Origin: Escherichia coli
GTDB taxonomy: Bacteria; Pseudomonadota; Gammaproteobacteria; Enterobacterales; Enterobacteriaceae
Strand: one strand, 5' to 3'
DNA length: 64,000 nucleotides
Assembly (NCBI RefSeq): GCF_003334315.1
Contig: NZ_QOWR01000015.1
The stretch's first letter is position 1. Each line of letters begins with the position of its first letter. A model generated the notes under the pieces. That model was not told the DNA's origin and did no database searches. It worked only from the letters and a program-made list of their open reading frames with translations. Of this stretch, positions 34,960-35,030 are shown in pieces. A program made the translations under genes and the position numbers.

Positions 34960-35030
34960 CTCTCTCCTTACGAAGAGAGTGAGGGTGAGGCATAAATTTT
35001 CCTCACCCTGCTCCTCTCCCGCAGAAGAGG
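34960..35030. repeat. GC-rich palindromic element in the gcvH-gcvP spacer, related to the repeat at 31866-31972
   Basis: Contains GAGGGTGAGG / CCTCACCCT inverted arms and a TCTCT-loop-AGAGA hairpin; shares the GGGTGAGG/CCTCACCC motif with the repeat downstream of gcvP. Confidence 0.4.

Follow-up and report, generated by a model that had tools for sequence, protein, structure and literature searches.

Background

What does a palindromic element lodged inside an operon do for the genes on either side of it? The question is raised by the spacer between gcvH and gcvP in Escherichia coli, which we analysed in a stretch of 64,000 nucleotides from contig NZ_QOWR01000015.1 (hereafter the window, whose positions are used throughout unless K-12 coordinates are named). 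Both genes lie on the minus strand and belong to the gcvTHP operon, which specifies subunits of the glycine cleavage complex. An earlier interpretation made from the letters of this DNA alone (the sequence-only reading) had pointed out palindromic arms in the spacer and had proposed that an intra-operon stem-loop could modulate relative gcvP expression or mRNA stability, and that gcvP is bracketed by related structures.

Here we combine predicted RNA folds, a repeat profile, published RNA 3' ends and a comparison of related genomes, and find that together they speak for an element acting as RNA, within the gcvTHP mRNA. The explanation we prefer, to which we give a probability of roughly 0.55, is that the spacer holds a decayed pair of BoxC repeats that acts on the mRNA: its central hairpin, most likely by blocking exonucleases, would fix where an abundant gcvTH RNA ends, and expression of gcvP would be lowered. 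BoxC elements are equated with the PIT and TMECO elements of other authors by Holder et al. (2015, PMC4666352).

Three tandem hairpins and a dominant RNA 3' end

The gcvH-gcvP spacer has exactly the length of 118 bp that the sequence-only reading gave, and the palindromic arms are in place: GAGGGTGAGG at 34981-34990, CCTCACCCT at 35001-35009, and CTCTCT/AGAGAG at 34960-34965/34974-34979. Its two palindromes stand, but it had overlooked a third hairpin, with the arms TCCTCT/AGAGGA (35012-35017/35026-35031). On the mRNA strand the element reads TTCCTCTTC-TGCG-GGAGAGGAG-CA-GGGTGAGG-AAAATTTATG-CCTCACCC-TCA-CTCTCTTC-GTAA-GGAGAGAG, and the spacer RNA is predicted to fold into three tandem hairpins (HP1, HP2 and HP3; Table 1) at -44.7 kcal/mol. 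Dinucleotide shuffles of the spacer averaged -31.6 +/- 3.4 kcal/mol, and none of 200 folded equally well (z score in Table 1). A permissive Rfam search of 31000-37500 returned only sub-threshold matches to microRNA-precursor hairpins, for example 22.4 bits against a gathering score of 93.

The locus is universal in the species: the 401 nt around the site are found at 95-100% identity in all 5426 complete E. coli genomes, with gcvH and gcvP annotated beneath. The region 34800-35200 has 5427 matching places in total, one of which is on a plasmid record and not on a chromosome. Across the 91 nt of the element, 4 of the 5426 genomes are identical to the window. At 35011 the mRNA strand of the window carries G in place of the T found in K-12 and in most strains (GGAGAGGA[G/T]CAGGG); the G gives HP1 one extra terminal U.G pair at a negligible change in energy. 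The loop of HP3 is GUAA or GCAA depending on the strain. We also observed that the end of the gcvH reading frame (AGAAGACGAGUAA) is complementary to the 5' arm of HP1 (UUAUUCCUCUUCU) at 85% over 13 nt (35023-35053), allowing a pairing that competes with HP1, and that ribosomes terminating at gcvH would overlap HP1.

The central hairpin coincides with a strong RNA 3' end in vivo. Term-seq data for strain MG1655 contain a curated 3' end at 3,049,097 on the minus strand in three growth conditions (Adams et al. 2021, PMC7815308, supplementary file 1), with scores of 412,219 in LB at an optical density (OD) of 0.4, 171,112 in LB at OD 2.0 and 34,570 in M63 glucose. In LB at OD 0.4, the sole condition in which it was seen, the end of the gcvP terminator (3,046,123) scores 36,065 in the same source, the spacer end having about 11 times that signal. 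Each entry of the published list gives 50 nt upstream, the 3'-end nucleotide and 10 nt downstream, a register that we verified on the gcvP stop codon and terminator; it puts the end on the U that directly follows ...CCUCACCCUCAC, inside the 5' arm of HP3 and 4 nt beyond the point where the pairing of HP2 stops. Where this end lies and how strong it is can be taken as shown. In the list of Adams et al. it bears the label 'orphan' and is apparently left undiscussed. A Rho-dependent origin was considered and rejected, the Rho termination regions in the same supplement (PMC7815308) including none for any gcv gene.

Further BoxC-type hairpins have listed Term-seq ends, namely 847200(-), 3781065(+) (TMECO #17), 3959467(-) (TMECO #20) and 4231270(-). 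At the first three, which we folded, each end falls 4 nt past a 9-bp stem that has no U-tract; at 4231270 it falls about 3-4 nt past the stem, as read by eye. Ends that share this distance of stem + 4 nt are what would be expected from 3'-to-5' trimming back to a stable stem. The signature matches the classical behaviour of REP elements in operons, which Newbury et al. are said to have described for malE-malF in 1987. The Term-seq lists of Adams et al. hold no entry for the commonest canonical BoxC subtype (CCCTCGCCCC...GGGGAGAGGG). ERIC copies at 127845 and 3071314 likewise have 3' ends in these lists.

A decayed inverted pair of BoxC repeats

BoxC is a known family in E. coli, with elements of 56 bp in 32 copies (Petrillo et al. 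2008), and the earlier works on BoxC and PIT are those of Bachellier et al. and Hoyne et al. 2000 (cited in Petrillo 2008 and Holder 2015, PMC4666352). With a profile built from the 23 published TMECO sequences (Holder et al. 2015), the two halves of the spacer element rank fifth and sixth among the matches in the window, lying on opposite strands in facing orientation, with E values of 4 and 6.9 (4.2 and 3.4 bits); the copies beyond gcvP score 2e-12 and 8e-10. Neither half agrees with the consensus CCCTCNCCC-N3-6-GGGNGAGGG-N3-GGGNGAGGG (Holder 2015), and the element is absent from the 23-copy Table 1 of that article (PMC4666352). BLAST with the 91-nt element (E <= 1) finds a median of 1 place per E. 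coli genome and no link to other BoxC copies. Given the departure from the consensus and the single BLAST place, the element is not a consensus member of BoxC by sequence alone.

Its layout is that of the family, with a pyrimidine block, a purine block and a GGGTGAGG third block, arranged as an inverted pair on the mRNA strand. Aligned to canonical BoxC, HP1, which starts 8 nt past the gcvH stop codon, is the decayed pyrimidine/purine hairpin of the left half and HP3 the decayed hairpin of the right half, and HP2 is built from the third blocks of the two inverted halves. The TGA and GCA of loop 2 only resemble the BoxC loops of type A (TTA) and type B (CCG). From end to end the E. coli spacer is collinear with canonical BoxC pairs of other genera, which at six loci (L009, L017, L025, L028, L011 and L022) stand at the same offset from the gcvH stop and the gcvP leader. 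A canonical pair or half occupies this spacer in Enterobacter cloacae, E. asburiae, Pseudocitrobacter, Buttiauxella, Pluralibacter and several further Enterobacteriaceae, with profile E values of 3e-10 to 2e-6 for the canonical copies of other genera, and a divergent Escherichia genome (L003) has an intermediate score (E = 0.006). On the weak profile signal and this positional homology taken together, we conclude that the gcvH-gcvP element is to be read as a decayed BoxC inverted pair. Its origin may be a single old insertion or a separate insertion at a favoured site.

Identity with REP was considered and rejected, since the REP motif (GCCGGATG-type) is absent from the spacer sequence and NC_000913.3 has no repeat feature annotated at the gcvH-gcvP locus. 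The kinship that the sequence-only reading saw between the two palindromes flanking gcvP is real, but their identity as BoxC/PIT/TMECO elements had escaped it. Elsewhere in the window, at 6382-6405, a pyrimidine/purine hairpin (CCCTCTTCCC-GCA-GGGAAGAGGG) lies in a 50-nt spacer between two ORFs of the same strand (open reading frames; 4977-6371 and 6422-7201); it gives weak TMECO profile matches on both strands (E of 1.2 and 3.1) and resembles the single BoxC-type hairpins found in some gcvH-gcvP spacers.

The related repeat beyond gcvP

The repeat on the far side of gcvP is a canonical BoxC inverted pair that corresponds to TMECO #10/#11 at K-12 3,045,989-3,046,087 (Holder et al. 2015, PMC4666352, Table 1); its RNA fold has z = -6.5, and BLAST finds it at a median of 18 places per E. 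coli genome. The relation between the two flanking elements is confirmed by the pattern GGGTGAGG-N5-35-CCTCACCC, which occurs twice in the 64 kb, in the spacer and just beyond gcvP, against 0.00 expected.

That gcvP is bracketed in any functional sense is not supported. The downstream pair starts 36 nt past the 3' end of the gcvP terminator and so lies mostly outside the gcv mRNA, and the ygfF-gcvP intergenic region that contains it (31700-32005) is collinear in only 3027 of the 5426 genomes, 44% having lost or rearranged it; none of the 5426, by contrast, lacks the gcvH-gcvP element. In the non-collinear genomes many matches end at query position 116-118, right after the gcvP terminator and before the BoxC pair. 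This instability fits the description of TMECO loci as prone to rearrangement (Holder et al. 2015, PMC4666352). Because the downstream repeat is past the terminator and so often missing or rearranged, the bracketing, though true as a description, is probably not functional, and we found no evidence for joint action of the two repeats.

What fills the same spacer in other Enterobacterales

A one-genome-per-species scan with GcvH gave 80 loci, of which the 79 that have both genes were scored. BoxC-type elements fill the spacer at about 13 of the 79, all of them in Enterobacteriaceae; REP/BIME pairs do so at about 13, including Citrobacter, Lelliottia and some Enterobacter, and ERIC-like elements at about 7. 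A canonical hairpin followed by a U-tract is found at 28 or more of these loci, including those of Photorhabdus, Pantoea, Dickeya, Pectobacterium, Yersinia, Providencia, Serratia, Shewanella and Idiomarina, and five (Erwinia and Rosenbergiella) have a spacer of 5-20 nt without a hairpin. Where GcvH is identical to that of E. coli the spacer belongs to one of two classes, the 118-nt E. coli type or a 162-nt REP type, the latter in a genome about 90% identical to Citrobacter werkmanii. Salmonella, Klebsiella, Escherichia albertii and E. fergusonii were not identified among the retrieved loci.

In Dickeya dadantii an internal termination site after gcvH has been reported at 71 +/- 22%, and it is said there to agree with studies in E. 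coli (Forquet et al. 2022, PMC9239193). The proposal that a stem-loop in this spacer works at the RNA level thus gains support in E. coli from the dominant 3' end 4 nt past HP2 in three conditions, and in relatives from the termination of about 71% in Dickeya and the hairpin with U-tract in at least 28 of 79 spacers. A wider idea, which we put forward tentatively and with less confidence than the local one, is that the spacer is a conserved attenuator slot that yields fewer gcvP than gcvTH transcripts, in which an ordinary U-tract terminator would serve in most Enterobacterales and would have been replaced interchangeably by the mobile palindromes BoxC, REP/BIME or ERIC in the core Enterobacteriaceae, and that transcribed BoxC elements might generally be hairpins without a U-tract that define RNA 3' ends. 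It draws on the uniform ends at stem + 4 nt of the four BoxC-type loci folded from the E. coli Term-seq lists.

How the element may act

In the mechanism we favour, the gcvTHP mRNA would fold at the spacer into its three tandem hairpins. RNA that has been cut or terminated further downstream would, by the most likely route, be trimmed from 3' to 5', and the exonucleases would halt a few nucleotides from HP2, with its nine G+C-rich base pairs, leaving a sub-transcript of gcvT and gcvH whose 3' end is the dominant one. Such RNA would outnumber full-length gcvTHP mRNA, and GcvP would be made below GcvT and GcvH. The element probably lowers gcvP relative to gcvT and gcvH as a matter of ordinary operon tuning. 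HP2 would on this account be the cause of the 3' end and trimming its origin, the GcvP:GcvH ratio would depend on the element, and the resulting ratio of expression may be under selection.

Some properties of the sequence point to the RNA strand. The element folds at -40.9 kcal/mol in the sense orientation against -30.4 for the antisense, because the G.U pairs of HP1 and HP3 become A.C mismatches on the antisense strand. Relative to the aligned canonical BoxC, the E. coli stems have undergone two compensated changes from C-G to U-A (alignment pairs 21-41 and 85-103) and two changes from C to U that leave G.U (pairs 27-35 and 90-98), none of them disruptive. The strand bias and the compensated changes are suggestive only. 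Eight collinear E. coli haplotypes, when aligned, differ at six sites. Each of these is a loop position, part of the linker between HP1 and HP2, or a terminal wobble position; viewed by itself, such a distribution has a chance probability of about 3e-4 to 6e-4. In one E. coli genome, VTB96775v (L090, NZ_CP178634.1, 301-470, equivalent to window 34960-35009), the spacer is 170 nt long and has a 52-nt insertion in which HP3 is repeated in inverted orientation and HP2 then occurs once more. The insertion has the look of an inverted duplication mediated by the palindrome, or else of an error in assembly.

Several observations weigh against this mechanism. Within E. coli, 65 flanking columns are as invariant as the stems, and we therefore do not count the loop-only polymorphism as selection on the stems; invariant stems with variable loops may also reflect mutable loops instead of selection, and compensation in a palindrome can arise through templated repair without selection. 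Between genera, 87.5% of the cells are paired in the alignment of the three hairpins and covariation is weak, with five pairs changed on both sides, a number reached by 58 of 500 shuffles. Over 75 spacers the bias of sense over antisense folding is marginal (median -0.9 kcal/mol, p = 0.054). HP3 is the first hairpin that an exonuclease arriving from downstream ought to meet, yet the dominant end is within the 5' arm of HP3, which the mechanism leaves unexplained: either HP3 is too weak as a block, or polymerase stops before HP3 is made. Canonical PIT elements had no terminator activity in work from Maher's group (cited in Holder et al. 2015, PMC4666352), a finding that counts against termination and not against exonuclease blockage. 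The SMRT-Cappable-seq supplements contain no gcv entries, and the E. coli site mentioned by Forquet et al. was not found in them.

Part of this evidence would also suit an element with no function at all, an old BoxC insertion in decay whose hairpins give RNA a stable 3' end incidentally and without a selected effect on gcv. The weak covariation agrees with such a relic, as do the reports that PIT elements lack promoter, terminator or other activity and that the position of TMECO elements shows no link to gene class or operon position (the former cited in, the latter from, Holder et al., PMC4666352). The exchange of REP, ERIC and BoxC in this spacer among close relatives is the turnover expected of selfish or neutral insertions, and spacers of 5-20 nt without a hairpin suffice in Erwinia and Rosenbergiella. 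We consider a neutral relic quite plausible, though less likely than the preferred mechanism: the element is fixed in all 5426 genomes while 44% have lost or rearranged the canonical copy 3 kb from it, its three stems are still paired on the mRNA strand after decay, through compensated and G.U changes, and the true terminator that distant relatives have in the same spacer suggests that the slot has a conserved job. A little less probable still is that HP2 is a leaky non-canonical intrinsic terminator or attenuator from which polymerase releases before HP3 has been transcribed. A 3' end upstream of HP3 is as expected if HP3 is never made, relatives have genuine intrinsic terminators here (about 71% in Dickeya), and the E. 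coli site after gcvH is attributed by Forquet et al. (PMC9239193) to SMRT-Cappable-seq, a method that captures primary transcripts. An in vivo end a few nucleotides past a hairpin is in itself compatible with termination or with trimming. At intrinsic terminators, however, the RNA usually ends 7-9 nt past the hairpin and not at +4. There is no U-tract directly after HP2, whose tail is CACUCUCUUC, and a terminator consensus scan left the HP2 site unflagged, although the same scan also missed the genuine gcvP terminator. The lack of terminator activity in canonical PIT elements (cited in Holder et al., PMC4666352) speaks against termination as well, and the same +4 signature at other BoxC hairpins without a U-tract fits trimming better.

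A role at the level of DNA or of translation is far less probable than any of these. An intrastrand, H-DNA-like triplex of the kind proposed for TMECO, at which polymerases stall and which favours rearrangement of the genome nearby, would be in keeping with the triplex formation in vitro and the association with rearranged loci reported for the parent family (Holder et al., PMC4666352), and with the 52-nt palindromic inverted duplication inside the element in 1 of 5426 genomes (VTB96775v). We regard it as very improbable at this site. Neither half agrees with the TMECO consensus (profile E values of 4 and 6.9), and a direct reading of the DNA finds G/C triads lost and T.G mismatches in the pyrimidine arm; with several G.G-C triads gone, a weakened triplex is predicted. 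Unlike typical TMECO loci, this one is structurally stable in 5425 of 5426 genomes, and pairing is far poorer in the antisense strand than in the sense strand, which points to RNA. The least probable account of all is translational control, for which three routes are conceivable: a small upstream ORF could be coupled to gcvP, the ribosome-binding site of gcvP could be sequestered, or ribosomes could stall at the end of gcvH. An ATG in the HP2 loop opens a frame of 24 codons (34920-34994, minus strand) whose TGA overlaps the gcvP ATG (ATGA) and which has an AGGA 7 nt upstream. HP1, 8 nt past the gcvH stop, is inside the range of roughly 15 nt within which REP hairpins are said, in work of Liang, Rudd and Deutscher from 2015, to stall terminating ribosomes, and its 5' arm can pair with the last codons of gcvH. 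Against this, the ATG of the HP2 loop is ACG in five of the eight collinear haplotypes and in the consensus, the Shine-Dalgarno sequence of the small frame is buried in the HP2 stem, and that of gcvP, about 25 nt past the end of the element, is predicted to be essentially unpaired. On account of the ACG the small frame was rejected, and it is probably not a gene.

Features of the locus

The coordinates of the hairpins, genes and signals are collected in Table 1. The gcvP leader is outside the repeat and is conserved across genera in the alignment of spacers. Its AUUCACUGCACGUUUCAGGAACCAUCGCUC is almost invariant in Escherichia, Enterobacter, Siccibacter and Kluyvera, the rest of the spacer upstream being replaced, and conservation over some 35 nt exceeds what a Shine-Dalgarno sequence alone would need.

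Table 1. Features of the gcvH-gcvP region in window coordinates (dG, predicted free energy in kcal/mol; CDS, coding sequence; aa, amino acids).
Feature	Position	Strand	Details	Basis
gcvH CDS	35041..35430	-	129 aa + stop; TAA at 35041-35043	ORF list; NC_000913 and BLAST annotation
gcvH-gcvP intercistronic spacer	34923..35040	-	118 nt	sequence; RNA fold z = -3.86
HP1	35011..35032	-	UUCCUCUUC-UGCG-GGAGAGGAG; 8-9 bp including 1-2 G.U	dG -12.8
HP2 (central hairpin)	34982..35009	-	AGGGUGAGG-(10-nt loop)-CCUCACCCU; 9 bp	dG -15.1
Published RNA 3' end	34978	-	K-12 3,049,097	Adams et al. 2021; position checked against sequence and fold
HP3	34960..34979	-	CUCUCUUC-GUAA-GGAGAGAG; 8 bp including one G.U	dG -10.6
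gcvP leader	34923..34957	-	about 35 nt, ..AUUCACUGCACGUUUCAGGAACCAUCGCUC-AUG; Shine-Dalgarno AGGA at 34933-34936	
gcvP CDS	32049..34922	-	957 aa	ORF list; NC_000913 annotation
gcvP intrinsic terminator	32005..32026	-	AAAGGCGC-UUCG-GCGCCUUUUU	published 3' end K-12 3,046,123 = window 32004
Canonical BoxC/PIT/TMECO inverted pair	31870..31968		#10 31870-31905 (+), #11 31933-31968 (-)	coordinates; profile (E of 8e-10 and 2e-12)

Meaning and comparison with known systems

BoxC/PIT/TMECO is among the few repeat families of E. coli without an accepted function, and prior work on it has dealt with DNA triplexes and genome instability. The gcvH-gcvP copy, with a well-studied operon around it and a strong, reproducible 3' end, offers a convenient test case for a role of BoxC at the RNA level, and also for whether mobile palindromes can replace a leaky terminator in setting the ratios of glycine cleavage subunits. 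In the pea mitochondrial glycine cleavage complex, H protein is required in excess over P protein. A literature search on gcv stoichiometry returned nothing useful. The practical consequence is small: annotation could name the element and the gcvTH sub-transcript.

Much of what is assembled here is already known, namely the BoxC/PIT/TMECO family, REP-like stabilisation, leaky internal terminators, the 3' end as a tabulated entry and a passing mention of an E. coli site after gcvH. In the literature searched we found no description of the spacer element as a degenerate BoxC pair, with the proviso that older BoxC lists (Bachellier; Rudd 1999) may include this copy, nor of the dominant gcv 3' end at HP2 of a BoxC-derived element, nor of the lineage-wise filling of the gcvH-gcvP spacer by terminator, REP, ERIC or BoxC.

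With canonical BoxC/PIT/TMECO the gcvH-gcvP element shares the three-block layout, the inverted tandem pair, the intergenic location and a position occupied by canonical pairs in other genera. It differs in failing the consensus, in standing outside the 23 listed copies and in having no BLAST link to them; its central spacer is 10 nt, against 27 nt in #10/#11; and it is a transcribed element within an operon, in which G.U pairs that exist on the mRNA strand only help to keep the stems. The leaky terminator of Dickeya dadantii (Forquet et al. 2022, PMC9239193) is found at the corresponding place and should likewise yield more gcvTH than gcvTHP; the E. coli element, by contrast, descends from a repeat and lacks a U-tract, and termination by it is putative.

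The REP/BIME stabilisers, of which malE-malF is an example, belong to another sequence family: the spacer element has no consensus of the GCCGGATG type, and NC_000913 carries no REP annotation there. We know of no mobilising enzyme of the TnpA(REP) type for BoxC. Like the REP elements found between cistrons (Higgins et al. 1982, as quoted in a citing paper), the gcvH-gcvP element is a dispersed palindromic repeat in an operon spacer, forming a stable hairpin that has no U-tract and an RNA 3' end at its base, so that the upstream cistrons would be expected to outlast the downstream one; and in Citrobacter, Lelliottia and some Enterobacter it is REP pairs themselves that occupy the spacer between gcvH and gcvP.

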